DNA of 18,297 nt from PVC group bacterium (GTDB lineage Bacteria > Auribacterota > Erginobacteria > Erginobacterales > Erginobacteraceae), in the NCBI GenBank assembly GCA_043804695.1, contig JAZDIV010000061.1, positions 1 to 18,297 on the forward strand, written 5' to 3'. Shown here one piece after another: positions 3,590-16,175 of this stretch (the first letter of the stretch is position 1; each line of letters opens with the position of its first letter). Both the position numbers and the translations under genes were made by a program. The notes under the pieces are model-generated. The model did not search any database. It was not told the DNA's origin and saw only the letters and a list, made by a program, of their open reading frames with translations.

Positions 3590-3670
3590 GGAATGTTGGA
3601 ATACTGGAGTATTGGAGTATTGGAAACCCAAACTCCATCACTCCATCACTCCATCACTCCATTACTCCAT
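3590..3670. repeat. Inverted octamer array (GGAGTATT-like x4 / ACTCCATY x5)
   Basis: GGAATGTT GGAATACT GGAGTATT GGAGTATT, short loop, then ACTCCATC x3 ACTCCATT ACTCCAT. Confidence 0.9.
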
Positions 3671-3689
3671 TTTTATTTACTCTATCCGT

Positions 3690-4181
3690 TCAGCCACGCT
3701 GTTTTGCCAGGTACGCAATCAGTCCCCCGGCGGCAATCAGCTCCTGCATGAAAGGGGGGAGCGGATGGGCGTGACAGACCTTCCCGGTGGCCAGGTTGCT
3801 GATCCGGCCGGAGCTTTCGTCGATCTCGATCTCTTCGCCTTCTTCCAGAACCCGGGCCGCCTCGGCGGACTCGAAGATCGGCAGCCCCATGTTGAGGGCG
3901 TTGCGGTAAAAAATCCGGGCGAAGCTGGCCGCCACCACGGCGGCAATCCCGGCACCCTTGATCGCCAGCGGGGCGTGCTCCCGGGATGAACCGCAGCCGA
4001 AGTTCTCTCCTCCGACGATAATATCGCCGGGGCTGATCTCCCGGGCAAAACCGGGGCGGATGTCCTCCATCAAGTGGCTCCCCATCTCAACCGGGTCGGT
4101 GGTGATCAGGTACCGGGCGGCCAGAATCTCGTCGGTGTTGACGTTGTCGCCGAATTTCCAGACTGTACCTTTCAGTTTCAT
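3690..4181 (-). CDS. leuD: 3-isopropylmalate dehydratase small subunit (short LeuD2/HacB-like type)
   Basis: VWKFGDNVNTDEI, GENFGCGSSREHAP, SFARIFYRNALNMGLP; between leuC and leuB. Confidence 0.95.
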   Translation of the reverse strand: MKLKGTVWKFGDNVNTDEILAARYLITTDPVEMGSHLMEDIRPGFAREISPGDIIVGGENFGCGSSREHAPLAIKGAGIAAVVAASFARIFYRNALNMGLPIFESAEAARVLEEGEEIEIDESSGRISNLATGKVCHAHPLPPFMQELIAAGGLIAYLAKQRG

Positions 4182-4183
4182 TT

Positions 4184-4238
4184 TATTAATTAGCTCACTT
4201 CGTTCGCGAATTAATAGTGGCTCCGACTTCGTCGGAGC
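4184..4238. repeat. Family-A hairpin plus second hairpin GCTCCGAC-TTC-GTCGGAGC
   Basis: TATTAATT-AGCTCACTTCGTTCGCG-AATTAATA (4184-4216), then a perfect 8-bp stem at 4220-4238. Confidence 0.85.
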
Positions 4239-4290
4239 TGAATCTTAACCCACATAATTGTATTGCGGTGACCTAATCAAAAATACTCTT

Positions 4291-5574
4291 CTAATGAACA
4301 TACGAAACCGGAGATTCAAGATCATCCGGATGGGTTAACTCTCCCGCTACCGCGCTGGCGGCGGCGACCGCCGGACTGGCCAGATACACCTCGCTCTCCG
4401 GATGGCCCATCCTGCCCACAAAATTGCGGTTCGTCGTCGCCACCGCCCGCTCGCCGGCCGCCAGAATGCCCATATGGCCTCCCAGGCACGGCCCGCAGGT
4501 CGGTGTTGAGACAGCCGCGCCCGCTTCCACGAAGATCTCTATCAGGCCCTCACGGAGCGCCTCAAGATATACCTGCTGGCTGCCGGGAAGTATGATCGTC
4601 CGCACCGTGGGGGCGATTTTTCTTCCCCGGAGAATCCCGGCGGCGACACGGAGGTCTTCCAGGCGTCCGTTGGTGCAGGAACCGATCACGGATTGGTCTA
4701 TCCTCACCCCTTTTGCCTCCCTGACCGGTTTCACATTCGAAGGAAGACTGGGACAGGCGACCAGCGGCTCGATCCCGCCCACGTCGATGGTGACGGTCTC
4801 CAAATACTCCGCGTCGGGATCGCTGGCATAAAACCGGGGCTCCCTCCGGGCGCGATTTTTCACGTACTCCCGGGTCACCCGGTCCGGCGGGAATATTCCG
4901 GCCTTGGCCCCCGCCTCGATCGCCATGTTGGACATGGTCAGCCGGTCGTTCATCGGCAGAGAGCCGATAACCGGCCCGTTAAACTCCATGGCAGAGTACC
5001 GGGCTCCGGAGACGCCGATCTTCCCGATCGTGTAAAGGATCAGGTCCTTGCCGGAGACCCAGGGATTCAGTTCCCCTTCATAGCGGAAAAGCATGGAATG
5101 GGGGACCCGGAACCAGGCCTCTCCCCCGATCATGGCCGCGGCCAGGTCCGTGGACCCGACCCCGGTCGCGAACGCCCCCAGCGCCCCATAGGTGCAGGTG
5201 TGGCTGTCGGCGCCGATGACCAGATCGCCGGGGACGACCAGCCCCTGTTCGGGGAGAAGAACGTGCTCGATCCCCATCTCTCCCACGTCATAAAAATGAG
5301 TGATCTTCTGCTCCCGGGCAAAATCCCGCACCAGGCGGCACTGCTCGGCCGAGCGGATATCCTTATTGGGGGTAAAGTGATCCAGCACCAAAACTATCCT
5401 CTCCCGATCAAAGACGGTCTCCACCCCGCTCTCCCGGAAAGCCTCGATGGCCAGAGGAGCGGTGATGTCATTCCCCAGGACCAGGTCCAGCTCGGCCATC
5501 ACGATCTCGTCCGGCTCGACCGTCTCCCGGCCGCAATGGGCCGCCAGTATTTTCTGGGCGATCGTCATTCCCAT
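4291..5574 (-). CDS. leuC: 3-isopropylmalate dehydratase large subunit (LeuC2/HacA-like type)
   Basis: MGMTIAQKILA, GADSHTCTYGA, Fe-S ligands IGSCTNGR and PTCGPCLG, TTNRNFVGRMG. Confidence 0.96.
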   Translation of the reverse strand: MGMTIAQKILAAHCGRETVEPDEIVMAELDLVLGNDITAPLAIEAFRESGVETVFDRERIVLVLDHFTPNKDIRSAEQCRLVRDFAREQKITHFYDVGEMGIEHVLLPEQGLVVPGDLVIGADSHTCTYGALGAFATGVGSTDLAAAMIGGEAWFRVPHSMLFRYEGELNPWVSGKDLILYTIGKIGVSGARYSAMEFNGPVIGSLPMNDRLTMSNMAIEAGAKAGIFPPDRVTREYVKNRARREPRFYASDPDAEYLETVTIDVGGIEPLVACPSLPSNVKPVREAKGVRIDQSVIGSCTNGRLEDLRVAAGILRGRKIAPTVRTIILPGSQQVYLEALREGLIEIFVEAGAAVSTPTCGPCLGGHMGILAAGERAVATTNRNFVGRMGHPESEVYLASPAVAAASAVAGELTHPDDLESPVSYVH

Positions 5575-5606
5575 ATTAATTAGCTCCCTTCGGTCGCAAT
5601 TAATAT
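5573..5606. repeat. Family-A hairpin overlapping the leuC start codon
   Basis: ATATTAATT-A-GCTCCCTTCGGTCGC-AATTAATAT. Confidence 0.85.
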
Positions 5607-5644
5607 ATTATTATATTTTGCAACGTTAAAAATAACATTATCGT

Positions 5645-5703
5645 TCCGATTTCTCATCTAAAATTTCGCGGCTCTGCCGCGAAATTTTAGATAAGAAATC
5701 GGA
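5645..5703. repeat. Long inverted repeat (28-bp arms, 1 mismatch, 3-nt loop)
   Basis: TCCGATTTCTCATCTAAAATTTCGCGGC-TCT-GCCGCGAAATTTTAGATAAGAAATCGGA between divergent leuC and pagL-like genes. Confidence 0.95.
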
Positions 5704-5730
5704 GCAATCAACCTGAATTATCTTTAAATC

Positions 5731-6258
5731 ATGCGATTATTACCCGCCATTGCCCTCTCCTGCCTGCTTTTAACAGTCACGGAAACCCGGGCGGATGTCG
5801 ATCAGGAACTGTTCCTGGGCGCCTACGTCTCCACGCTTCGGAATCTGCCAACCAGAGGGGTGACCGGGGCCTACCGGATCTGGCTGAAGGCCGGCGCCGA
5901 TCAGGGGTTCTCCATTCTGTACCCCCGACCCTTTACACTCGGCTGCGAACTGCGGGGAGGGTGGCTGTGGGGGCCGGATGACACCGGTGAAGTGAGTCTC
6001 CTGGTCGATCTCAAGTACGAGCTTGATCTCTACGATGATTTCGGGTTCTATCTCCTGATCAGCGGCGGGGGCAATTACTCCGGGGCCTCGTATGAGAGCG
6101 TGCCCACCCACGTGAACTTTATCGACCGCGGCAGTTTCGGTATCCGGATTTATCGGGTGCTGCTCCAGGCTTCCTATGAGCATCGGAGCAATGCCGGCCT
6201 GGACGCCCCGAACCGAGGCGTCGATCTGATTACCGCCTCTGTCGGCTACCGTTTTTAA
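5731..6258 (+). CDS. PagL-like lipid A 3-O-deacylase / acyloxyacyl hydrolase family outer-membrane beta-barrel
   Basis: Signal peptide (MRLLPAIALSCLLLTVTETRA), alternating beta-strand pattern, PagL-type YEHRSNAGL..PNRGVD (H-x-S) motif, C-terminal GYRF. Confidence 0.8.
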   Translation: MRLLPAIALSCLLLTVTETRADVDQELFLGAYVSTLRNLPTRGVTGAYRIWLKAGADQGFSILYPRPFTLGCELRGGWLWGPDDTGEVSLLVDLKYELDLYDDFGFYLLISGGGNYSGASYESVPTHVNFIDRGSFGIRIYRVLLQASYEHRSNAGLDAPNRGVDLITASVGYRF

Positions 6259-6285
6259 TAAATTAGCGCCTCCGGCGCTAATTTA
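6259..6285. repeat. Family-A hairpin directly after the pagL-like stop; possible terminator
   Basis: TAAATTAGCGCC-TCC-GGCGCTAATTTA, perfect 12-bp stem. Confidence 0.85.
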
Positions 6286-6426
6286 GTGGATTTTTCACCT
6301 TTTAAACTTAAAACAGATTGATGATAATCCCAAAATTAGTTCGTATCCAACAGCTCAATCCATAAAGGTAAACCCTTAGCATTATACAGAAAAAACAAAA
6401 TTATGTTTTGTTGGTTTCTTTTTCGT

Positions 6427-6480
6427 CTGTTTCGGAATTTCAATGATCGGATCTATCCGATCATTGAAATTCCGAAACAG
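6427..6480. repeat. Perfect 26-bp inverted repeat with 2-nt loop
   Basis: CTGTTTCGGAATTTCAATGATCGGAT-CT-ATCCGATCATTGAAATTCCGAAACAG. Confidence 0.97.
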
Positions 6481-6490
6481 GAACTTAATT

Positions 6491-6526
6491 CCACCACTCC
6501 ATTACTCCACTACTCCATCACTCCAT
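6491..6526. repeat. CCAYYACT octamer array (right arm only)
   Basis: CCACCACT CCATTACT CCACTACT CCATCACT CCAT. Confidence 0.85.
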
Positions 6527-6571
6527 GTTTCTCCATGCTGAATACAAATCCAGAATAGGAGTCTATGACAG

Positions 6572-7123
6572 ATGAACTCTCAGTATAAAACAAAGCAGAG
6601 CCGAGAGATATACCGGGGGCCTTTCTTCTCCCTCCGGGAATATCTGGTGGAGTATCCGGATGGAGAGGAGAAGAAGCGGATCATCCTGGAGCACCCGGGG
6701 GCGGGGGCGGCCGTTCCCCTGCTGGATGATGACAGAGTCGTCATGGTACGGCAATTCCGAAAAGCCGCCGGCCGGGTGACACTGGAGATACCGGCCGGCA
6801 AGATGGAAAACGGCGAAAATCCTGAAGACTGCATCCGGCGGGAACTCCGGGAAGAGATCGGCTACCGGGCCGGACGGCTGACCCATCTGAGAAGCTACTA
6901 CCCCTCCTTCGGGATCAGCAGCGAGATCATCCACGTCTATCTGGCGGAGGACCTTCTCCCGGCCCCTCCCGCCGGCGGCGATGAGATCGGACTGGGACCG
7001 GTAATCCTCCCTCTGGCAGAAGTCCGGGCCCTGATCGGGGCCGGAAAGATCATGGACAGCAAGACCATCATCGGGGTCCGGGAGTTGGACCGATTTAGAA
7101 CCGCGAAGACGCAAAGAACTTAG
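6572..7123 (+). CDS. nudF: Nudix hydrolase, ADP-ribose pyrophosphatase (NudF-like)
   Basis: SREIYRG, EHPGAGAAV, VRQFR, LEIPAG, Nudix box GKMENGENPEDCIRRELREEIG, IMDSKTIIG; AGGAG at 6557-6561. Confidence 0.88.
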   Translation: MNSQYKTKQSREIYRGPFFSLREYLVEYPDGEEKKRIILEHPGAGAAVPLLDDDRVVMVRQFRKAAGRVTLEIPAGKMENGENPEDCIRRELREEIGYRAGRLTHLRSYYPSFGISSEIIHVYLAEDLLPAPPAGGDEIGLGPVILPLAEVRALIGAGKIMDSKTIIGVRELDRFRTAKTQRT

Positions 7124-7345
7124 CTCGCTGCGCTCGCAACTTTTGCCACCAAGACACTAAGAAAAAAGCAAATACGATGAGTATTTTACCCTTTTTCCTC
7201 TTTTCTTGGTGCCTTTGTGCCTTGGTGGCTAATAATTATTGAAATTCCGAAACAGTACATTAGGTTAGTGTCGATACGTGTAATTCGTGGGCTGTAATAG
7301 GGGCAACGCCGGGGGGAAAGAATCAGAGTAATCAGTGAAATCTGA
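7100..7345. repeat. Mosaic of repeat families between convergent nudF and GNAT genes
   Basis: Family-A core 7123-7137; GCCACCAAGACACTAAG (7145-7161) inverted to CTTGGTGCCTTTGTGCCTTGGTGGC (7205-7229); half-site 7238-7255; AATCAGAGT AATCAGTGA AATCTG (7321-7344). Confidence 0.75.
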
Positions 7346-7371
7346 GGACTAACAAGGGGGCACGGTGGGAA

Positions 7372-7842
7372 TCAGGTATCCCGGACCAGCGCCACCTCCT
7401 TGCAGTCCGGGAAATGGGGACAGTAAATACAGTCCTTCCAGATCTTCTGGGGAAGGCTCTCTTTCGAGATCTCGGAGAAGCCGAGCTGGAGGAAAAATTC
7501 CGGAGAAAAAGAGAGCGTGAAGACACGCGGAATCTTGAGATCGGCGGCATCGCGAAAGCAGTCCTCGACCAGCGCCCTCCCCCACCCTTTCTCCCGGATG
7601 TCCTCCGCCACCGCCAGGGTCCTGATTTCCGCGATGTCTTCCCAGCAGACCTGGAGGGCGGCGCAGCCCACGATCCGGTCCCCCGCCGCCAGCACCCGGA
7701 AGTCCCGGATGCGCTCATAGATCGAGGAGAGAGACCGGGGGAGCATCAGCCCCCGGGCGGCGTACTTGTTCACCATCTCCCTGATCCCCTCCGCGTCGGG
7801 GGGGTACGCTCTTCTCAGCGCGACGCTCATCTCCGGGCTCAT
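7372..7842 (-). CDS. GNAT N-acetyltransferase, short ArgA-like (amino-acid N-acetyltransferase) family
   Basis: GLMLPRSLSSIYERIRDF, AEIRTLAV, acetyl-CoA motif REKGWG, LPQKIWKDCIYCPHFPDCKEVAL tail. Start chosen at 7842 (GGAGG 8 nt upstream); 7884 and 7830 are alternatives. Confidence 0.85.
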   Translation of the reverse strand: MSPEMSVALRRAYPPDAEGIREMVNKYAARGLMLPRSLSSIYERIRDFRVLAAGDRIVGCAALQVCWEDIAEIRTLAVAEDIREKGWGRALVEDCFRDAADLKIPRVFTLSFSPEFFLQLGFSEISKESLPQKIWKDCIYCPHFPDCKEVALVRDT

Positions 7843-7873
7843 CTTTTCATCCTCCCGTTCTTTTCCCGTCTCT

Positions 7874-8986
7874 TCAATCGGCAATCGTCACCCGGGTCCC
7901 CCGGGGGAGAAAGATAAACAGTTCATCCACATCCGCATTGACCATCCGGACGCAGCCGTCGCTGCTCTGGCTGCCGACCGTCTCCGGCATGGTGGTGCCG
8001 TGAATCCCATAGGCGGCATAGGGGTCGTCGAATCCCATCCAGCGGGTCCCCAGAATATTGCGGGGGTCGAAGGGGGGGATCGTCTCTCCCCCGTGAATCC
8101 AGGGAGGGTCGATCAGCCTGGTGACGATGGTGAATTCGCCGACCGGGCTGCAGTTGTTCCGCCCGGTGCCGACGGAGTACTCCTTGAAGAAGGCGCCGCC
8201 GTAAAGCAGGGTCAGGGTGTTGCGAGACTTACTGACGGCGACCTCAAAGCGCCGGTCCGGCACCTTCAGTACCTGTCCGGGATGAATGATGTCCCCGGAG
8301 ATTTTGTTCATCTCCTGCAGGAGGGCGGCGGTGGTGCCGTGGGCCCGGGCGATCGCCTCCAGCGAGTCTCCCGAACGGACCGTGTACGAGCGATCCCCCT
8401 CGCCGATCGCCGGGGAGAGAAAGAGCGAGAGGTTCAGCTCCCCGAGTTCCGCCCGGGCCCGGGCGATCGTTTCCGCCGGGCCGGCGGATTCCAGTACCTC
8501 CCGGTAGAGAGCCGCGGCGGCGGCGACATCTTCCGCCTCTTTCCTGGCCCGGGCCAGAAGCAGCCGGGCCTCCGGGCTCCGGGGAGAGCCGGGATACCGC
8601 TCCAGATAGGATTGCAGCCGTTCCCGGGATCGGCCGCCCTTTTCCATCGCAATCAGAACACGATTGTATTCGGCTTCCTCCCGGAGCGCGGGGTCGTCCG
8701 AGGAACCCAGTTCTTCCCAGAGCGCGGCCGCCGCCGGGTAGTCCCTCAGCCGCATCCGGCAGCGGGCGAGCAGAAGGGCGGCTTCTCTCCCGGTGGCTTC
8801 ATCCGGCGGGGCGGCAACGATTTTTTCCAGGAGGGGGACCGCGGCCCGGCAGTCTCCTGACCGGGCCCGTTCGAAGGCGGCCCGGAATTCCTTCCCGGTC
8901 GGGCGGGGGCGGAAGACAAAAAACCAGAAGAGAAGGACAACAATCAGAAGCGACACCAGTGCGATTAGAACAAACTTGCCGCGCAT
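7874..8986 (-). CDS. Membrane-anchored TPR-LysM-L,D-transpeptidase (YkuD family)
   Basis: N-terminal TM helix, TPR-like helical repeats, LysM (YTVRSGDSLEAIA...IHPGQVLKVP), YkuD motif YGIHGT...SSDGCVRM. Start at ATG 8986 (MRGKF). Confidence 0.9.
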   Translation of the reverse strand: MRGKFVLIALVSLLIVVLLFWFFVFRPRPTGKEFRAAFERARSGDCRAAVPLLEKIVAAPPDEATGREAALLLARCRMRLRDYPAAAALWEELGSSDDPALREEAEYNRVLIAMEKGGRSRERLQSYLERYPGSPRSPEARLLLARARKEAEDVAAAAALYREVLESAGPAETIARARAELGELNLSLFLSPAIGEGDRSYTVRSGDSLEAIARAHGTTAALLQEMNKISGDIIHPGQVLKVPDRRFEVAVSKSRNTLTLLYGGAFFKEYSVGTGRNNCSPVGEFTIVTRLIDPPWIHGGETIPPFDPRNILGTRWMGFDDPYAAYGIHGTTMPETVGSQSSDGCVRMVNADVDELFIFLPRGTRVTIAD

Positions 8987-9026
8987 ATTTCTCTCGATTG
9001 GATTCTGCTGTCGCGGAACCGGGAAT

Positions 9027-9764
9027 CTATCCGGCCTTCCGGGGCAGCGGATGGTGCCGCACGACCTTTTTTTGCCGGATCTCAATCCGGATCCCCTGGT
9101 AGAGGCCCATGATCAAATAGGACATGAAGGCCAGAAAAATACCGACCTGATGATGGGTGATCAGGATGACCAGGATTAAAATCACGGCCACCAGGTAGAG
9201 AAAGGGCTGTTTCTTCCTCAGGTCCATGGTCAGCAGCGTGGGGTAGGTGAGGCTGGTCACCATCAGGGCGCTGAGCACGATCATGATGAAGGGGATGACC
9301 ATCTCCAGGCCGAACCCGAAATGTTCGTTAAAGATAATGAACGAGAGCAGCACCCCCGCCGCCACCGGGGAGGGAAGCCCCTTGAAATCACTCTTCTCTT
9401 CCTTGTTGACCTGGATATTGAAGCGGGCCAGGCGCAGCGCGCAGAAGACGATGTAGAGAAAGGCGATGCCGACGCCGAAGCCCCCTAGCCGTTCCAGGAC
9501 GATCCGGTAGGCCAGGATGGTGGTGACCACCCCGAAAGAAAGAAAGTCGGCCAGGGAGTCGAGCTCGACCCCGAACCGGGTGGTCGCCCGATACAGCCGG
9601 GCCAGCTGCCCGTCGATGAAGTCGAAGATCATCGCCAGCAGGAGGAACCAGGCCGCCCGGGGATACAGCTCCGGGACGCCCCGCAGGATCAGGGAGAGGG
9701 AATAGACCCCGCAGAAGATGTTGGCGGTGGTGAAGAGATTGGGGAGAATGTAGATCTTTTTCAT
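9027..9764 (-). CDS. pssA: CDP-diacylglycerol--serine O-phosphatidyltransferase
   Basis: ILPNLFTTANIFCG, CDP-alcohol motif DFIDGQLAR...FGVELDSLAD, ALRLARFN, FKGLPSP; ATG 9764 overlaps the psd stop (ATGA). Confidence 0.94.
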   Translation of the reverse strand: MKKIYILPNLFTTANIFCGVYSLSLILRGVPELYPRAAWFLLLAMIFDFIDGQLARLYRATTRFGVELDSLADFLSFGVVTTILAYRIVLERLGGFGVGIAFLYIVFCALRLARFNIQVNKEEKSDFKGLPSPVAAGVLLSFIIFNEHFGFGLEMVIPFIMIVLSALMVTSLTYPTLLTMDLRKKQPFLYLVAVILILVILITHHQVGIFLAFMSYLIMGLYQGIRIEIRQKKVVRHHPLPRKAG

Positions 9765-10393
9765 GTTATTTTTCCTATGAGGGTCCGCCCCCCCCGGACG
9801 CGATCTCCCGGGGAGACGGTAAATGACGCGGACAGCGGGAAGAAAAGCTCCACCCGGGAACCGAAACGGATCAGACCCAGTTTCTCCCCCGCCCGCAGGC
9901 GATCTCCCACCCGGCAGCGGCAGACGATCCGGCGGGCGACCACGCCGGCAATCTGCTTCATCATCCAGGAGCACCGGTCACCCCGGAAACCGATCTTCTG
10001 GGCTTCATTCCCCTCCGAAGCGGACTCCAGGTAGGCTTTTTTGAATCCTCCCGGCTGACGGGAGAGATAGGCGACTTCGCCCGCGGCCGGCGCGTAGTTG
10101 ATGTGCTCGTCGAAGAGGGACATGAAAATGCTGATCTTCCTGACCATCTCTCCCATAAAGTCCGGTTCCCGGACCTCCCGGATATCGATGATTGTGCCGG
10201 AGGCGGGGGCCACGATCTGGGGGCCGTCGAATGTTGTCTCGACGGGGCTCTCCCGGAAAAAGAGCGCGGAAGCCAGGGCCAACAGGAGAAAGAGAGCCCC
10301 GATCGGCCACAGCCTCCAGAAGATGAAGAGGAAGACCGCCCCGATCACGAAGAACAGCCCGATAAACTTCAAACCGTCTTTTTCAACCATCAT
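9761..10393 (-). CDS. psd: Phosphatidylserine decarboxylase proenzyme (short type)
   Basis: LFFRES, ISIFMSLFDEHINYAP, KQIAGVVARRI, autocleavage motif IRFGSRVE; coupled to pssA. Confidence 0.94.
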   Translation of the reverse strand: MMVEKDGLKFIGLFFVIGAVFLFIFWRLWPIGALFLLLALASALFFRESPVETTFDGPQIVAPASGTIIDIREVREPDFMGEMVRKISIFMSLFDEHINYAPAAGEVAYLSRQPGGFKKAYLESASEGNEAQKIGFRGDRCSWMMKQIAGVVARRIVCRCRVGDRLRAGEKLGLIRFGSRVELFFPLSASFTVSPGDRVRGGRTLIGKIT

Positions 10394-10394
10394 A

Positions 10395-10465
10395 ATAAAT
10401 TAACTCGCTTTGCTCGTTAATTTATGCGAACCCCCCGACTGAAGTAGTCGGGGGGTTGTTGCTTA
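10395..10465. repeat. Composite element: family-A hairpin + CCCCCCGACT/AGTCGGGGGG hairpin + tail
   Basis: ATAAATTAAC-TCGCTTTGCTC-GTTAATTTAT, linker, CCCCCCGACT-GAAGT-AGTCGGGGGG, TTGTTGCTTA. Confidence 0.85.
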
Positions 10466-10628
10466 GACAAAGATTACTCCCCGAAAGCAAGGTCGCGAAA
10501 GGTATTTCTTATTCCTGCCAATATCTATAACTTTCGTGTTGCTGTTCTTTTTATCCCTGTCATGGTTCAAAACTACCCCTATTTATGAAATAAATCGGGG
10601 TTACACTATAATTTTTTCGAAGAAAAAA

Positions 10629-12020
10629 TTATATGCTGATAAAACCGAACAGGGACTTGATGTCGTCGTCCCGCAGCCTCAGCCCTCCTCCCCCATAAAA
10701 ACCCGGCTCATCAAGGAGGTTGTCTCCTCCCAGCCGGAGATAAAAACCCCACCAGACGTGGGTGTCGATGAACGCGCGGAGGAGGAAGGGATCGATGTTC
10801 TCATCCTTCTCCTTCGACCAGACGTCCCTCCCTTCTATGGTGGCCACCAAGTCCTCACCCCAGATCCGGAAATCCAGGCCGCCGCCGACCCGGCCTTCCA
10901 GCAGCCCTCCCCGGACGGTCAGGATGTTGTCGAAGAAGCGGAGGCCGATCTGGGCGTCGATTTCCGTAGAGGGGTCGTCGGTCCGGTCCGCCTCCGTCCC
11001 CTCCCCCCCCAGCAAACTGAAACCGATCTGATAAATCTTGCTGGGGGTGGGCTCGATCTGTATATAGGCCTTGGTCAGGCTGTGCTGGTTCCGGGTATTG
11101 TAGGCGGCCTCGGCCCCGATGTAAATGCGGAGCCGCTCCGCCTTTGACAGCATGTCGGTCAGCTTCTGACCGGCGGTGTTGACCGAGGCCAGCGTTCCCT
11201 GGGCTTCGGTGTAAAACTCCTCCTCATTGACCAGCTTGCCGATCGTCCCCTTGCCCTGGTTGATCTTGTCGGTTATCTCCTTGAGGTTCTTCATGGTGTC
11301 CCGGATCGAGGGGGTCGTCTCCTTCAGCTCCCCGACAATCTCATCCACCTTGTCCCGGTTTTCCTCCACCATCTTCTGGAGGTCGGCGAAGAGCTTCCTG
11401 ACATCGTTATAGAGCTCGCGGTCGTTGATCAGCTTGCCGACCGTCCCCTCTCCCGCAGCAATTTTGTTCGCGATCCGCCGGATGTCGTTGTAGATGTCCT
11501 CTTCGGCGATCAGCTTCCCGACCGTCCCCTCCCCCCGGGAAATCTTGGCCGTCGTGTCCTTGATCGAGGCCAGGATCTGATCGACATTGTCTCCCGCCTT
11601 TCCCAGACTGGCGATCGCCTCCGACAGCCCCGGAGAACTCAGCCCCTCAATCTCATCCCCCTTCTGGATAAATCCGGATGACTCGTCGCCCCAGATGATA
11701 TCGACCCGCTTGCCCCCCAGTAAACCGATGTCTCCCAGCCGGAAGATCGAGTCCCGCGGGATCTTGATCCCCCGGTCGATGGCGATGATAACCCTGATCT
11801 TTCCCTTTGCCTGGACCAGGTCCTTGACGGATCCCACCACCATGCCGCCCAGGGCGACCTTGTCCCCCCGCTCCAGGCCTCCGACCTGGTCGAAGGCAAC
11901 GCTGATGGTGTACTGTTTCTTGAAGATATTGATGTCGGTGAGCAGAATGGTGAAGAGAGCCAGAAGAGCGATCCCCAGGAAGAAGACCAGACCCACTTTC
12001 TTTTCTGCCGACAGGCCCAT
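10629..12020 (-). CDS. mlaD: MCE/MlaD family protein with long helical region and beta-rich C-terminal domain
   Basis: N-terminal TM (KVGLVFFLGIALL), MCE domain (FDQVGGLERGDKVALGGMVVGSV...GLLGGKRVDI), three G-x-GT-x-GKL repeats, C-terminal amphipathic strands; follows mlaE-mlaF. Confidence 0.9.
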   Translation of the reverse strand: MGLSAEKKVGLVFFLGIALLALFTILLTDINIFKKQYTISVAFDQVGGLERGDKVALGGMVVGSVKDLVQAKGKIRVIIAIDRGIKIPRDSIFRLGDIGLLGGKRVDIIWGDESSGFIQKGDEIEGLSSPGLSEAIASLGKAGDNVDQILASIKDTTAKISRGEGTVGKLIAEEDIYNDIRRIANKIAAGEGTVGKLINDRELYNDVRKLFADLQKMVEENRDKVDEIVGELKETTPSIRDTMKNLKEITDKINQGKGTIGKLVNEEEFYTEAQGTLASVNTAGQKLTDMLSKAERLRIYIGAEAAYNTRNQHSLTKAYIQIEPTPSKIYQIGFSLLGGEGTEADRTDDPSTEIDAQIGLRFFDNILTVRGGLLEGRVGGGLDFRIWGEDLVATIEGRDVWSKEKDENIDPFLLRAFIDTHVWWGFYLRLGGDNLLDEPGFYGGGGLRLRDDDIKSLFGFISI

Positions 12021-12024
12021 ATTA

Positions 12025-12197
12025 CAAGTTAGCGCCTCCGGCGCAACTTGATGTGTAAAGTGTAAAGTGGAAGGTGTAAGGGGTCTTTAAACTTTACACC
12101 TTACACTTCACACTACTTTATTGAAATTCCGAAGCAGTAAATTAGCTCGCTGCGCTCGCTACTTTATATCGGACCCCCCCGATTGAATCAATCGGGG
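12025..12197. repeat. Five stacked repeat modules in the mlaF-mlaD spacer
   Basis: Family A 12025-12050; GTGTAAA/TTTACAC heptamer hairpin 12053-12113; half-site 12120-12137; family A 12138-12166; CCCCGATTGA-A-TCAATCGGGG 12177-12197. Confidence 0.88.
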
Positions 12198-12242
12198 AAG
12201 AAAAAATAATATCGGGGTTACCGGGGACACGCCGACATACTG

Positions 12243-12992
12243 TCACTTTTCCCATCCCTCTTCGTGCTTCGGGATGCCCTTGATGAACTCCTGCACCAGC
12301 CGCTCCGGGCTCCGCCTGATCTCGTCCGGGGTCCCGAGGGCGACAATCCTCCCGTCATAAAGCATGGCGATCCGGTCCGCGATCAGGTAGGCAAAGCTCA
12401 TGTTGTGAGTCACCGCGATAGCAGTAAATCCAATCCGGGCATGGAGGTCAACTATTAAATGCCCAATGGTGGCGCTCAGGATCGGGTCAAGGCCGATGTC
12501 GGGTTCGTCGAAGAGAACCAGGTGCGGATCCATCACCAGGGCCCGGGCCAGGGAAACTCTTTTCTGCATCCCCCCGGAGAGTTCGGAGGGCAGTTTCTCC
12601 TCGACATCAAACAGTTTGACCAGATGCAGCCTGTCGCTGACGATCTCCCGGATCTTCTCGTCGGGATAACCGCTGTGTTCTTTCAGGGGAAGGGCCACGT
12701 TATCCCCGACCGTCAATGACTGGAGAAGGGCCGGCGACTGGAAGATCACCCCGTACCGTTTCCTGATCTCGTAGAGTTCTCGGAGTGAGCAGCCGGGGAT
12801 CGAGACGCCGTCCACCAGGACATCCCCGGAGTCGGGCTTTAAAAAGCCGATGATGTGCTTGAGGAGAACCGACTTCCCCATCCCGCTCCCGCCGATGACA
12901 ACCATCAGTTCCCCCTCCTTCACCTCGAGGTTGACTCCTCGGAGCACCTCTTTCCCCCCCAGGCGCTTATGTACATTGTTAATCTCAATCAC
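12243..12992 (-). CDS. mlaF: ABC transporter ATP-binding protein MlaF/Mkl
   Basis: Walker A GGSGMGKS, signature LSGGMQKR, Walker B LVLFDEP, H-loop VTHN; GTG start; between mlaE and mlaD. Confidence 0.93.
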   Translation of the reverse strand: MIEINNVHKRLGGKEVLRGVNLEVKEGELMVVIGGSGMGKSVLLKHIIGFLKPDSGDVLVDGVSIPGCSLRELYEIRKRYGVIFQSPALLQSLTVGDNVALPLKEHSGYPDEKIREIVSDRLHLVKLFDVEEKLPSELSGGMQKRVSLARALVMDPHLVLFDEPDIGLDPILSATIGHLIVDLHARIGFTAIAVTHNMSFAYLIADRIAMLYDGRIVALGTPDEIRRSPERLVQEFIKGIPKHEEGWEK

Positions 12993-13050
12993 GGCAGAAT
13001 TAATTCCTTATGCAACACGCCCAACTGTACCGACACTCGGATAATGTTCC

Positions 13051-13139
13051 GGAGTATTGGAGTGCTGGAATACTGGAGTGGTGGAAACCGGTACTCCAAT
13101 GCTCCCTTACCCCAATACTCCATTACTCCATCACCCCAT
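13051..13139. repeat. Inverted GGAGTRYT/ARYACTCC octamer array
   Basis: GGAGTATT GGAGTGCT GGAATACT GGAGTGGT GG ... TACTCCAA TGCTCCCT TACCCCAA TACTCCAT TACTCCAT CACCCCAT. Confidence 0.9.
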
Positions 13140-13158
13140 TTCCTATACCCCATCTCAT

Positions 13159-13206
13159 CTATTTTCTACTGAGGGAGCATCAAGATGCTCCCTCAGTAGA
13201 AAATAG
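13159..13206. repeat. Perfect 23-bp inverted repeat overlapping the mlaE 3' end
   Basis: CTATTTTCTACTGAGGGAGCATC-AA-GATGCTCCCTCAGTAGAAAATAG. Confidence 0.97.
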
Positions 13207-13960
13207 CAGTGATGAAATAATCGAAGACCAGTACCGTCAAAAACGAGAACACCAGCGACCGGGTGGTCGCCCGGCCCACGCCCTGCGCTCCCGCCCGGGC
13301 GTTCAGGCCCTGGTAGCAGGCGACCGCGGCGATCGTCAGCCCGAACACGACCGCCTTCACCATCCCGGTGTAGATATCCTTGATCTCGAGGTTGGACATC
13401 GCCCCGTCGAAAAACGTGTAATAACTGATCCCGATCTGGAGCCGGGCGATCACCCCCCCTCCCACGATGCCGACCAGGTCGGCGAATGCGGTGAGGATGG
13501 GGAGCATCACCAGAAGCGCCCAGATCCGGGGCATCACCAGGAAGCGGACCGGGTTGATCGACATCGCCTCCAGGGCGTCGATCTCCTCCGAGACCTTCAT
13601 CGTTCCCAGCTGGGCCGCCATCGCCGATCCCACCCGGCCGGCCACGATGATGGCGGCGAAGACCGGCCCCATCTCGCGGCAGATGGAGGCGGCGACGATA
13701 TTGCCGATCGTCCCCTGGAGCTGGAAGCGGGCCAGCTCGTGGCCGGTCTGGAGCGCCAGCACCATCCCCGTGAAGAGGGCGACCACCATCACCACCGGCA
13801 GGCTTTCCACGCCGCAGAGGAGCATCTGGTCGATGATCAGGACCCGGTATTTCAGGGTGGTCTTGAACCAGTAGAGCCCCCGGAAGAGGAGAACCACCGT
13901 GCCCCCCATCCCCTGAAGCATCTCCAGTATCTTGCCGCCGGTTTTATCCAGGATATCCAT
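13193..13960 (-). CDS. mlaE: ABC transporter permease MlaE
   Basis: GVESLPVV, REMGPVFAAIIVAGRVGSAMAAQLGTMKVSEEIDALEAMSINP, GAQGVGRATT. Confidence 0.96.
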   Translation of the reverse strand: MDILDKTGGKILEMLQGMGGTVVLLFRGLYWFKTTLKYRVLIIDQMLLCGVESLPVVMVVALFTGMVLALQTGHELARFQLQGTIGNIVAASICREMGPVFAAIIVAGRVGSAMAAQLGTMKVSEEIDALEAMSINPVRFLVMPRIWALLVMLPILTAFADLVGIVGGGVIARLQIGISYYTFFDGAMSNLEIKDIYTGMVKAVVFGLTIAAVACYQGLNARAGAQGVGRATTRSLVFSFLTVLVFDYFITAIFY

Positions 13961-13965
13961 CTTGG

Positions 13966-14034
13966 AAGTGCCTAAAGTGCCTAAAGTTTTCAGCCAGAGG
14001 CTGATCCGCCTCCGGCGGAGAAGTGCCTAAAGTT
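13966..14034. repeat. AAGTGCCTA nonamer array interrupted by a double-hairpin element
   Basis: AAGTGCCTA AAGTGCCTA AAGT [TT TCAGCC-AGA-GGCTGA TCCGCC-TCC-GGCGGA G] AAGTGCCTA AAGTT. Confidence 0.85.
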
Positions 14035-14093
14035 AAAACTACTCGCCGACATTGGAGCGGGAACGAGCTATTATTCATTATTTTAATATTTTT

Positions 14094-14137
14094 TTGAAAT
14101 TCCAAAGCAGTTAATTAGCCCCCTTCGGTCGCTAATT
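14094..14137. repeat. Half-site plus family-A hairpin
   Basis: TTGAAATTCCAAAGCAG-TT-AATTAGC-CCCCTTCGGTC-GCTAATT. Confidence 0.85.
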
Positions 14138-14253
14138 TATGTTTTGAACCAAGACTATTATGATTCCATTGAGGCAATACCGGTGACTTAAACTGTTCCT
14201 GCAATATTGCTTCAATGCTTGCACACTCTTATTTTTCCGCAGAAAAAATAAGA

Positions 14254-14952
14254 TTATTGAATCACGTCCCCCCCGCTCTCCAGCGGCTCGAAGAGATCCG
14301 CTCCTTCCGGCAGCCTGAAATCGAAGAAACGGTCGGAAAGCCCGGAGTTGATCCGCCATTCCTTTATCTCCAGCTCCACCGGGGGCTGGGACTGCCGGGA
14401 GATGACCATCCGGCTGATCAGCCAGGTCCGGGGGTCGACCCGGGCCCGGACCTCCCTGATCTCCGCGTCCTTCTGGTCCGGGACCACCGTCACCAGGTAG
14501 GACCCGTCGGCCTGGACCGCGGCCGAACGGTTCGTCCCCCGCAGGAGCACCTTGATCGGGGAGGTCAGCCCCCAGCTCATTTCGTAGAGGGTCGCCTGCC
14601 GCTGCTCTTCATCCTTCAGCCGGTAGGCCTCGACGATCCCCAGGTCGGGAGAATAAATCCACATCCGGGCGCCGTTGATGAGGACCTCCCGCCCGCCATT
14701 GACCACAGTCTTCAGCTTGTCCGGCTTCTGGTAGCTCAGGGTGATCAGCGCCGGCACGCCCGGGCCGCCGTCCCCCGCCCGGGGGATCAGTTCCACCGCG
14801 GCCACCAGGTCGTCGATCTTCTCCCGGACCGCCTCCATCTTATAAATAATCCGGTTAATGTCCGGCGGCGGCTCCGGCGCAGTGAAACTCCGGAAGGGCA
14901 TCGCGGTGGTTATAACCATCAAGATGTAAAAAATGATTTTTCTAAGGCACAT
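14254..14952 (-). CDS. LolA-like outer-membrane lipoprotein carrier family protein
   Basis: Signal-like N-terminus; YQKPDKLK, LINGARMWIYSPDLG and INSGLSDRFFDFRLPEGAD match the LolA-fold pattern (KP..., DG...W.Y.P, N.......F.F..P.G). Confidence 0.78.
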   Translation of the reverse strand: MCLRKIIFYILMVITTAMPFRSFTAPEPPPDINRIIYKMEAVREKIDDLVAAVELIPRAGDGGPGVPALITLSYQKPDKLKTVVNGGREVLINGARMWIYSPDLGIVEAYRLKDEEQRQATLYEMSWGLTSPIKVLLRGTNRSAAVQADGSYLVTVVPDQKDAEIREVRARVDPRTWLISRMVISRQSQPPVELEIKEWRINSGLSDRFFDFRLPEGADLFEPLESGGDVIQ

Positions 14953-14987
14953 AATTCAACTCGGCGGATAGGGAATAACGACATCCG

Positions 14988-15070
14988 GGAGTGCTGTCCG
15001 GCCCTCCATCACTTTTACCCGCCGAAGCTTTAGCGGAGGAGGGCCATCACTCCGGTACTCCAACACTCCA
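14988..15070. repeat. Octamer array containing the same 30-bp REP-like insert as 2429-2458
   Basis: CCATCACT [TTTACCCGCCGAAGCTTTAGCGGAGGAGGG] CCATCACT CCGGTACT CCAACACT CCA. Confidence 0.88.
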
Positions 15071-15125
15071 TACGGATCCTTCCCGGAATCTCATAAACGA
15101 AATATATCTATTGATTCAGCCGTGA

Positions 15126-15638
15126 TTACTCTTCTTTGCTCAGAACCGCCTGATAATAGATGCCCTTCTTGCGGATCGTGTACCGATCGAACGGAGACGA
15201 TGCCAGCCACCCGCTGATCCGTTGCATCGATACCGCGCCCGGCAGGGGCAGCCGGACATTCGCCCGTTCATCCCGCCGCCGGATCCGGCTTTCCCACTCC
15301 CTGACATCATCAGGACGGGGATGGCGGTAATGACCGTAGAGAAGCGCCTCCCCCCCGTTTCTCAGCAGGCCGTACACCGTCTCCGGGGGAAGGATCGCGT
15401 TCGTCCTGCCGAGCACCTGCCAGCCGATGAAGAGATCGCAGCCGTCACTCCCCCCCGCCGCGGGCGCGGCCGGATCGGCCGCCTCCAGCGGGAAGGGCAG
15501 TCCGGCCTCCCGGCGCAGGAACCGGCAAAAGTCGGTATCGAAACCAAGAACGCCGACGCCGGACCGTGTGCCTGACAGGTCACGGGCAATCTCTTCCCAG
15601 ATTGCTCTTTTGACCGGATCGATCTTCATTTTATTCAT
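15126..15638 (-). CDS. Hypothetical protein, possibly a degenerate class I SAM methyltransferase fold
   Basis: 170 aa, GGGAG RBS 7 nt upstream, GC-rich body with AT-rich boundaries; VGVLG, CDLFIG and VYGLLRNGGEALL resemble methyltransferase motifs I-III. Confidence 0.6.
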   Translation of the reverse strand: MNKMKIDPVKRAIWEEIARDLSGTRSGVGVLGFDTDFCRFLRREAGLPFPLEAADPAAPAAGGSDGCDLFIGWQVLGRTNAILPPETVYGLLRNGGEALLYGHYRHPRPDDVREWESRIRRRDERANVRLPLPGAVSMQRISGWLASSPFDRYTIRKKGIYYQAVLSKEE

Positions 15639-15738
15639 TCACATTCTCCCACAAGCCCCTTGATTGGGCAAGAATAACAACAGACGGGGCCGGATCAGCC
15701 CCCGTCGGAGACGCGCCTCTGGCGCACAATAACTGTAT

Positions 15739-15789
15739 TGTGGGAGGGGTTTTTAACCCCGATTATCGGGTTAGGAAAGCCCTCCCACA
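15739..15789. repeat. GTGG-type REP doublet (REPIN-like)
   Basis: TGTGG-GA-GGGGTT-TTT-AACCCC-GA-T, and on the opposite strand TGTGG-GA-GGGCTTTCCTAACCC-GA-T, head to head. Confidence 0.75.
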
Positions 15790-16010
15790 GTTGCGAGGCT
15801 AAGTTCCTGCTTCGGAATTTTCCCGACATCCGTCGGAATCCCGATAACAATATTTTTAAATAAATGAATCGGGGCAATAATCTTATTTTTTCTGCGAAAA
15901 ATAAGAACGGTATATCTGAAGCCGACTGATAAATTATATTCCATGGTATAAACATAGTGGCTGAGGTTATCGGGCTATTTTATCGTGTTGCCTCGGTGAA
16001 AATATTTTAA

Positions 16011-16113
16011 TTAACCAGCAGCCCCCCGACTGAATCAGTCGGGGGGCCAGTATAAAGTAACGCCGAAGGCGCTAATTTATTTGTTTTTCTTGGTGTCTTG
16101 GTGCCTTGGTGGC
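16011..16113. repeat. Composite element in reverse orientation plus CTTGGTG nonamer array
   Basis: GCCCCCCGACTGA-A-TCAGTCGGGGGGC (16021-16047); family A 16052-16080; TTTTCTTGGTGTCTTGGTGCCTTGGTGGC (16085-16113), 27/29 identical to 7201-7229. Confidence 0.85.
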
Positions 16114-16175
16114 GATATGATATAGCTGAGGTACAGCCAACGCTGCCATCACCGGGGCGGGGAGTGGCGAAACCA

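Follow-up and report, generated by a model that had tools for sequence, protein, structure and literature searches.

Short TTAGC hairpins of an uncultured PVC-group bacterium face gene boundaries and may form part of 5' leaders

What are the nine short hairpins that recur along a single contig of a PVC group bacterium (JAZDIV010000061.1 in assembly GCA_043804695.1), and are they read as folded DNA or as parts of messenger RNA (mRNA)? The window analyzed here is this contig at its full length of 18,297 nucleotides (nt), one of 155 contigs in an assembly of 2.97 Mb with 57.8% G+C (hereafter G000). The element, here called the TTAGC hairpin after its arms TTAGC/GCTAA, had been described in a sequence-only reading of the window as an undescribed, strand-specific element of single-stranded DNA (ssDNA) of the type exploited by HUH enzymes. 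The structural code and the strand asymmetry of that description stood in the present analysis, but the orientation by replication and the link to an HUH enzyme did not, the latter failing on adjacency. Considering the genome-wide evidence, we propose, with a probability of roughly 55%, that the hairpin (about 250-290 copies) is the terminal module of lineage-restricted, mosaic intergenic repeat cassettes that are polar with respect to genes, lie in the 5' leader at gene starts and are not the partner of an HUH enzyme.

The genome was scanned with the pattern TTAGC-N(5-15)-GCTAA, each arm being allowed one mismatch at most and an inner hairpin being required. After filtering, 288 loci remained, i.e., 33, 134 and 121 at spacings of 7, 9 and 11, respectively, as against three to four matches at each of the control spacings 12-15. 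Curation, which removed weak in-gene matches, left 254 copies, five of them within called genes. The exact short-form pattern occurs 89 times in G000 and its reversed control not once. The density of about one copy per 1.5 kb first estimated from the window proved to be local (one per 1.5-2 kb there), the genome average being about one per 10-12 kb. Each locus was oriented by its purine-rich unpaired bases, and the strand so defined is referred to as the purine strand; genes were called with our own codon-usage caller (2,128 genes).

The placement of these loci follows a polarity rule in which the 3' side of the purine strand, carrying the constant arm GCTAATTTAT, faces the nearest open reading frame (ORF) and is often flush with it. 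A coding-scored ORF start lies within 40 nt of GCTAA on the purine strand in 166/284 loci, 100 of these being only 5-8 nt away; on the opposite strand a start is found within 40 nt in 21/269 loci. Among the 288 loci, 100 starts and 32 stops fall within -5 to +10 nt of the purine 3' side, and about eight boundaries on the other side. Where a spacer separates co-directional genes, copies no more than 12 nt from the downstream start are sense in 74 cases and antisense in one, and those 12-40 nt away in 24 and three cases (98 versus 4 for all within 40 nt), while within 12 nt of the upstream stop the counts are 5 sense versus 27 antisense and near neither boundary 21 versus 10. Overall, the purine strand of 112 copies ends 0-12 nt before a start codon; ATG is the start codon in 103 of these 112, and GCTAA-TTTATA-ATG is the commonest junction. 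A further 33 loci are flush with a stop codon, which lies within the arm itself in 22 of them (the TAG of TTAGC, or TAA one base earlier). The same upstream modules precede the hairpin in start-flush and stop-flush copies alike. A second repeat family of this genome, headed by GTCATTGCGA, served as a control of the pipeline and gave an orientation of 61 versus 58, with no copy within 12 nt of a boundary on the 3' side and eight on the 5' side.

Does this asymmetry reflect replication? Taking whole-contig GC skew on 71 contigs of at least 15 kb as a proxy for the replichore, the orientation follows the direction of the gene in both skew classes (80 sense versus 21 antisense for genes on the skew-positive strand, 19 versus 10 for genes on the skew-negative strand) and not the skew; the proposed orientation by replication was not borne out. 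Elements on the skew-positive strand (126:69) showed a preference no stronger than the baseline of co-directional gene spacers (625:271). A replication effect suggested by local (±10 kb) GC skew (Fisher p = 0.004) was weaker with whole-contig skew, and we treat the local signal as noise from gene-driven local skew. The cassettes would spread and be replaced at the DNA level, and selection would keep only those orientations and positions that leave the neighboring gene expressed, which would explain a strand asymmetry that goes with transcription units and not with replichores.

Where the hairpin adjoins a start codon, its purine strand is sense and it sits in the leader at the place where relatives have an ordinary Shine-Dalgarno (SD) sequence. 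At leuC and leuD, the place taken by the hairpin in G000 is occupied in G001, G002, G004 and G005 by a canonical AGGAG-type sequence 6-9 nt before the ATG. The leuD gene of G003 has GCCCGAGC-GAA-GTGAGGGC 10 nt before its ATG, with a tandem-GA, GAA-loop tip like that of the G000 leuD copy and with the outer pairs GCCC/GGGC instead of TTAGC/GCTAA. About 80 nt upstream of the leuC hairpin, the same strand has a promoter-like TTGATT-16-TAAAAT, which would place this hairpin in the leader. The best-supported reading is that about 112 genes have the hairpin as their 5' leader or in its place. It would then be transcribed within the leader, compatible with initiation from the AU-rich spacer, and would act, or at least be tolerated, in the translation-initiation region of the mRNA. 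The hairpin may contribute the AU-rich spacer itself and, in certain subfamilies, a run resembling an SD (GGAGG or GGGAG).

The 3' end of the 16S rRNA is GATCACCTCCTTT, and 409 of 1,023 element-free genes have GGAG, GAGG or AGGA within 20 nt of the start, mostly 6-10 nt before it, on crude start calls. Flush copies leave no space for a separate SD. In the GGA-loop type, GGAGG stands 11-12 nt ahead of the ATG, and in the GACC type GGGAG stands about 10 nt ahead of it; the GAGCGCAGCGA type carries only GCGAG, with no SD-like run. In copies 13-40 nt from the start, the gene's own SD follows the hairpin.

The comparison with relatives covered 30 genomes besides G000 (31 in total, 22 of them from other families of the phylum) and used a covariance model of the long form trained on 25 copies, at E ≤ 0.001 and with at most 150 candidates scored per genome (150 of about 1,500 in G000). 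The model matched 143 loci in G000, 83 in its congener G001 and 73 in G003, a member of another genus of the same family. Six further genomes of the family had 6, 2, 2, 1, 0 and 0 matches, and all 22 genomes of other families had none. The exact short form occurs 46, 61, 11 and 1 times in four other genomes and is absent from the rest, and its reversed control is absent from all 31. Within these 31 genomes, the cassettes are therefore restricted to a single clade, at family level, of uncultured PVC-group (Auribacterota-like) bacteria. In public genome records, the short form is repeated in two metagenome-assembled genomes labeled 'uncultured bacterium' and in Candidatus Euphemobacter frigidus, a member of Candidatus Auribacterota. 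The titles returned for Auribacterota include none concerning repeats, and those returned for repetitive extragenic palindromes (REPs) together with start codon and Shine-Dalgarno hold no description of this element.

Among the 20 top-scoring long-form matches of each genome, taken without a coding score, the start-flush rule recurs in 16/20 for G001 and 13/20 for G003; the dominant cores in these sets are GAGC-GAA/GCA-GCGA in G001, and GAAC-GAA-GTGA and GACC-GAA-GGGA in G003. The individual copies appear to turn over rapidly between congeners. The window is wholly syntenic with one contig of G001 (genes at 73-89% nucleotide identity), and only two of its nine copies have a positional counterpart there, at the starts of psd and of the MlaD-domain gene. 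The psd copy is the only one with a counterpart of the same type, one arm pair having changed from A-T to G-C on both sides, and at the MlaD gene the short form of G000 corresponds to a long form in G001. Conversely, a G001 hairpin is flush with the start of the ortholog of the gene starting at 13960, where G000 has none at that position.

This turnover bears on the possibility that the hairpin is a dedicated cis-regulatory RNA motif, i.e., the site of a global translational regulator, an RNA thermometer or a processing signal exerting coordinated control. The fixed distance from the start codon, with GCTAA, TTTATA and ATG as the commonest series and 112 loci within 12 nt, would fit such a motif, as would the 3' arm, which is more strongly conserved than the 5' arm. 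Tandem GA pairs and G-N-A loops are, moreover, common protein-recognition features in RNA. Folded as RNA, the purine strand of four long forms reaches -4.7 to -8.8 kcal/mol, 1.3-2.1 kcal/mol better than the complement, and the perfect short forms reach -15.9 kcal/mol on either strand. As DNA, a short form gives -11.7 kcal/mol, and the purine strand is favored by 0.4-1.7 kcal/mol in three of the four long forms; the fourth, the copy with its core at 4193, does not fold as the family hairpin, its pyrimidine strand being 0.5 kcal/mol better. These nearest-neighbor folds favor RNA in absolute terms, on parameter sets that may omit special triloop terms. On the other hand, the predicted RNA stability of the copies spans -4.7 to -15.9 kcal/mol, which fits poorly with a single shared switch. 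The sites are unconserved between congeners (2/9), the genes served (leuC, leuD, psd, MlaD) are unrelated housekeeping genes, 33 copies lie antisense at stop codons, and the copy number ranges from 0 to about 290 within one family. We consider coordinated control through such a motif improbable.

A GC stem preceded by an A-rich arm and followed by a U-rich one also recalls intrinsic terminators, and a bidirectional terminator or insulator could stop transcription that leaves the adjacent ORF, since a polymerase leaving the ORF reads the pyrimidine-loop strand in both flush classes. In a simple terminator scan, two of the nine window copies pass, including the stop-flush copy at 6259-6285, and the other seven fail, while terminator-like sites in the window number 19 against a shuffle expectation of 20.4, i.e., without excess. 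A terminator placed 0-12 nt before 112 starts, many of them in operon-like runs such as leuC-leuD, would block expression, and the U-tract UAAUUU is short and base-paired. A terminating role for the family is very improbable on this evidence.

The structure of the hairpin is well supported in the genome-wide set, which bears out a strand-asymmetric and structure-constrained family. The main cores on the purine strand are GCCGAAGGC (55 copies), GAGCGCAGCGA (51), GCCGGAGGC (37), GACCGAAGGGA (20) and GCGAAGC (12). Conservation of the GNA loops and of the GA/GA pairs, as first noticed in the window, holds in the larger set: the loop is G-N-A in 227 of the 254 curated copies and closed by a C-G pair in 246, and 97 of the 113 long forms have GA/GA, a further seven having GA/TC, in which Watson-Crick pairing is restored. 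Compensatory change among the paired bases, also claimed from the nine copies, was confirmed for the second pair from the loop, and the remaining stem pairs barely vary. In an alignment of 84 matches from three genomes, with 52 distinct rows, this pair is GC in 21 rows, CG in 18, AU in seven and unpaired in none; its covariation score is 0.109 against 0.031 in shuffles (0/500 reach it) and at most 0.025 in slid registers. The covariation is real but narrow: its evidence comes mainly from this one pair, and the aligned rows are repeat copies that share a common descent. A subfamily has GTAGC replacing TTAGC in the 5' arm (e.g., GTAGCGCCGAAGGCGCTAA, 13+11 copies; GTAGCGAGCGCAGCGAGCTAA, 8+8), the majority having TTAGC or TTTGC.

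The expectation that no described Rfam family would match was also confirmed, the only matches at gathering score in the window being two tRNAs. Within positions 4100-7300, searched at E up to 5, no match to the element exceeded about half the gathering score of its family. STnc490 at 5579-5705 comes closest, scoring 27 bits where its gathering score is 56, antisense over the leuC leader, and the other sub-threshold matches are microRNA-precursor models on neighboring long hairpins.

The tips fit the C-GNA-G and tandem-GA rule that the sequence-only reading had recognized. In the parts of a review by Hirao available to us (PMC13037366), such mini-hairpins are described as far more stable as DNA than as RNA, with natural uses in the promoter hairpins of phage N4 (5-bp stem, GGA or GAA loop) and in ssiA of RSF1010. 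These properties support a reading at the DNA level, in which a structure-specific ssDNA enzyme (an Ssn-type GIY-YIG nuclease, an HUH enzyme or another) reads the folded purine strand and the gene-linked orientation results from selection against harmful insertions. The high retention of the tip code, its presence in stop-flush and mid-spacer copies and the fast turnover between congeners would all be expected of such an element, while the independence of its orientation from GC skew argues against it.

A search for the enzyme gave six Y1_Tnp (HUH) matches in the genome. One of them, on contig C62, encodes a REP-associated tyrosine transposase (RAYT) of 162 amino acids (NCBIfam NF047646, 134 bits against a cut-off of 80). 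The sequence-only reading had suggested looking for an HUH or RAYT gene flanked by the element; the RAYT gene is instead flanked by a different repeat, with eight doublet-type copies of GTGGGAGGG...CCCGAT within 1.5 kb, and the 3 kb on either side of each of the six Y1_Tnp matches contain no TTAGC hairpin. The HUH link was rejected on this adjacency. Because of the eight copies within 1.5 kb of the RAYT gene, the GTGGGAGGG doublets are taken to be the classical REPIN-RAYT system of this genome. Counting both strands, there are 95 occurrences of GTGGGAGGG, compared with about 23 expected by uniform chance, and a doublet of the same repeat (GTGGGAGGGGTTT...AACCCCGAT / ATCGGG...CCCTCCCACAG) is present in the window at 15738-15795.

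Ssn proteins are single-domain GIY-YIG nucleases that, according to the available portions of Chenal et al. 2025 (PMC11893778), cut their own flanking hairpin repeats (SRM) as ssDNA. G000 has an Ssn-like single-domain GIY-YIG gene (95 amino acids, contig C27, 25968-26252). In G000, and likewise for its orthologs in G001, G003, G006 and G009, the gene has GTCATTGCGA...GAAGCAAT hairpin repeats on either side, forming an Ssn/SRM-like pair; the genome has 292 copies of the head GTCATTGCGA and the window none. The cores of these repeats (254 copies) share the tips GA-NC-GNA-GN-GA with the TTAGC family. Their most frequent forms are G-GAGCGCAGCGA-C (30), G-GAGCGAAGCGA-C (21) and G-GAACGAAGTGA-C (6), along with short C-GNA-G hairpins; the 11-nt tips in common are GAGC-GNA-GCGA and GAAC-GAA-GTGA, and the same sharing is seen in three other genomes. 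Membership of the TTAGC family in the SRM was rejected by the published pattern and by adjacency: the pattern matches 0/254 TTAGC copies (with 12-nt flanks, both strands), its 37 matches genome-wide are not enriched over the 26-32 in shuffles, and no member by the strict pattern lies in the loci of about 2-3 kb around the Ssn-like genes of the five genomes. The phyletic match between Ssn-like ortholog and hairpin copy number is loose, the ortholog being present in G006 and G009, with three and zero elements, and not found in G004, with 17. The GTCATTGCGA family also lacks the gene-boundary placement of the TTAGC hairpin. Considering both the shared tips and these mismatches, reading of the purine strand by an ssDNA enzyme is a possible but doubtful account of the family. 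A DNA-level origin of the tip code is nevertheless conceivable, since the tips are shared and the code favors DNA, though no cognate enzyme was found for the TTAGC family.

Several observations weigh against the proposal that the hairpin is a leader module at gene starts. The tip code is one that favors DNA over RNA hairpins, and it is common to the TTAGC family and to the repeats flanking a gene of the ssDNA-nuclease type. TTAGC copies keep G-N-A both where the purine strand is in the mRNA of the neighbor and where it is not (107/112, 30/33 and 93/112), and equally so outside that mRNA (30/33 versus 107/112). G.T oppositions on the purine strand (24 in the curated set) are not clearly above A.C oppositions (18), an asymmetry that was tried as a strand test and found uninformative. 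Supply of an SD was considered as the reason for the flush placement and rejected, because the SD-less GAGCGCAGCGA subfamily is flush with the start in 31/51 copies, compared with 19/37 for the GGAGG type, 26/55 and 13/20. At the RNA level, the purine strand offers no rationale for the 33 stop-flush loci. A look-up of sequencing runs for positions 3600-13500 returned none; the case for transcription of the hairpin comes from its position and from the one promoter-like site, and single start calls by a codon-usage caller may be wrong.

A bolder and rather unlikely hypothesis would combine these threads. The C-GNA-G and tandem-GA tip may be a shared ssDNA recognition code of at least two families, with the TTAGC family as an Ssn-type offshoot that acquired new arms, was deposited hairpin-end-first at start and stop codons by an ssDNA mechanism, overwrote native ribosome-binding-site leaders and became the working leader of about 5% of genes. 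If true, this would be a mobile element targeting ORF boundaries.

The nine cores reported for the window were all recovered at their positions and on their strands (Table 1), flanked by AT-rich arms of the type AAATTAGC...GCTAATTT or a variant of it. Where 1.89 occurrences of the constant 3' arm GCTAAYT would be expected, the window has 10, which 0/200 shuffles reach.

Table 1. TTAGC hairpin copies in the 18,297-nt window, with their cores and genomic context.
Position	Strand	Form and core	Context	Score (bits)
4185..4215	-	long, GCGAAC-GAA-GTGAGC	ends 5 nt before leuD (Aconitase_C) ATG (4181); start-flush	46.2
5575..5605	-	long, GCGACC-GAA-GGGAGC	flush against leuC ATG (5574)	37.9
6258..6286	-	short, GCGCC-GGA-GGCGC	directly after TAA stop of plus-strand PagL-like gene (5731-6258); stop-flush	
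7115..7145	-	degenerate long, GCGAGC-GCA-GCGAGC	arm provides TAG stop (7121-7123) of plus-strand NUDIX gene; stop-flush	41
10395..10425	-	long, ACGAGC-AAA-GCGAGT	ends 3-4 nt before psd ATG (10393)	48.9
12024..12052	-	short, GCGCC-GGA-GGCGC	ends ~5 nt before ATG (12020) of MlaD-domain gene	
12137..12167	-	long, GCGAGC-GCA-GCGAGC	mid-spacer; then reverse complement of TTGAAATTCCGAAGCAG module	48.6
14110..14140	-	long, GCGACC-GAA-GGGGGC	mid-spacer, ~150 nt upstream of 13960 gene start; same AT-rich TTGAAATTCCGAAGCAG module follows	42.9
16052..16080	+	short, ACGCC-GAA-GGCGC, A.C mismatch at base	~100 nt upstream of plus-strand gene start 16176	

The purine strand of the copy after the PagL-like gene is antisense to that gene, and a CCCCCCGACTGAATCAGTCGGGGGG hairpin module precedes the plus-strand copy. 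A lone AATTAGC arm with a normal SD (GGAGAATTAGCA-ATG) is found at 2217-2232, before the start of the minus-strand gene 1205-2221, and may be the remnant of a hairpin copy.

Other repeat modules adjoin the hairpins of the window. An AT-rich module, TTGAAATTCC(G/A)AA(A/G)CAG, stands next to them in fixed relative orientation at 6463-6480, 7240-7256, 12120-12137 and 14097-14113, and in two copies it follows the hairpin as the reverse complement. A second hairpin module, (C)nGA(C/T)TGAA(T/G)(C/T)A(G/A)TCG(G)n or GGCTCCGACGAAGTCGGAGCC, is present at 4218-4240, 10431-10457, 12174-12197 and 16023-16047, usually 10-12 nt upstream of the TTAGC hairpin and often after GTTAACCAACAG, and it is among the commonest 5' neighbors of the hairpin genome-wide. 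Several spacers are filled by facing arrays of 7-11-nt units (ACTCCA(T/C)C, GTGTAAAG, GTGCCTAAAG, CTTGGTGCC), at 2390-2430, 3595-3675, 6490-6530, 7150-7235, 12050-12115, 13040-13130, 13965-14035 and 16085-16115.

Beyond this clade, the matches listed for the 19-nt tip TTAGCGCC-GNA-GGCGCTAA show it capping much longer palindromes, unrelated in other respects, in cyanobacteria, Alphaproteobacteria, Bacteroidota and Chloroflexota (at least eight loci in Pseudanabaena, five in Fulvimarina and three others). Their outer arms differ yet stay complementary, and among these matches none has an Rfam match.

About 112 of some 2,100 called genes thus start within 12 nt of the same repeated hairpin, at places where the leaders of close relatives are of the ordinary Shine-Dalgarno type. 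It may be that a selfish repeat can occupy the translation-start region of many housekeeping genes without being lethal, or else that the lineage has adopted a portable leader. Both cases bear on the flexibility of bacterial translation initiation and on the effects of repeats on gene expression, and the tip code shared with Ssn-type nuclease repeats makes the DNA-level reading of the code testable at the bench.

Among known systems, the TTAGC family resembles the REP/REPIN/BIME repeats and their RAYTs in consisting of short, imperfect extragenic palindromes in hundreds of copies, lineage-restricted, divided into subfamilies and arranged in mosaics with other modules, with a copy number that differs sharply among relatives. 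It is a high-copy extragenic imperfect palindrome of 20-40 nt, as REP-type repeats are. REP palindromes have a conserved GT[AG]G head on their 5' side; here one subfamily carries GTAGC in its 5' arm, whereas most copies have TTAGC or TTTGC. Unlike REPIN-RAYT systems, TTAGC hairpins adjoin no Y1_Tnp gene and are polar to genes and flush with start and stop codons, and we know of no description of such gene polarity or flushness as a REP property.

The BOX elements of Streptococcus and the TAACTGA repeats of Beggiatoaceae (PMC4679880) are likewise modular, dispersed non-coding repeats transcribed with their neighbors and suspected of post-transcriptional effects. Their sequence and architecture are different, and a repeat ending flush on start codons in place of an SD leader is not reported in the available parts of that source. 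The d(GCGNAGC) mini-hairpins, the N4 promoter hairpins and ssiA share the C-G-closed G-N-A triloop on a short GC stem, the 5-bp stem of N4 resembling the short form. As described in the excerpts of the review at hand (PMC13037366), the N4 and ssiA hairpins are single sites in single-stranded or supercoiled DNA with a dedicated polymerase or primase, whereas here there are about 290 chromosomal copies with the purine loop on the coding strand of the downstream gene. The SRM, as characterized in the accessible parts of PMC11893778, are hairpin-forming inverted repeats, 20-50 nt long and present in hundreds of copies. The arms of the TTAGC family, TTAGC/GCTAA, differ from GTCATTGCGA/GAAGCAAT in the Ssn-flanking repeats of this genome, which have no gene-boundary placement either, but these repeats carry the TTAGC-type tips GA-NC-GNA-GN-GA. 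Overall, the TTAGC repeat is an interspersed repeat of the REP/BIME/SRM kind.

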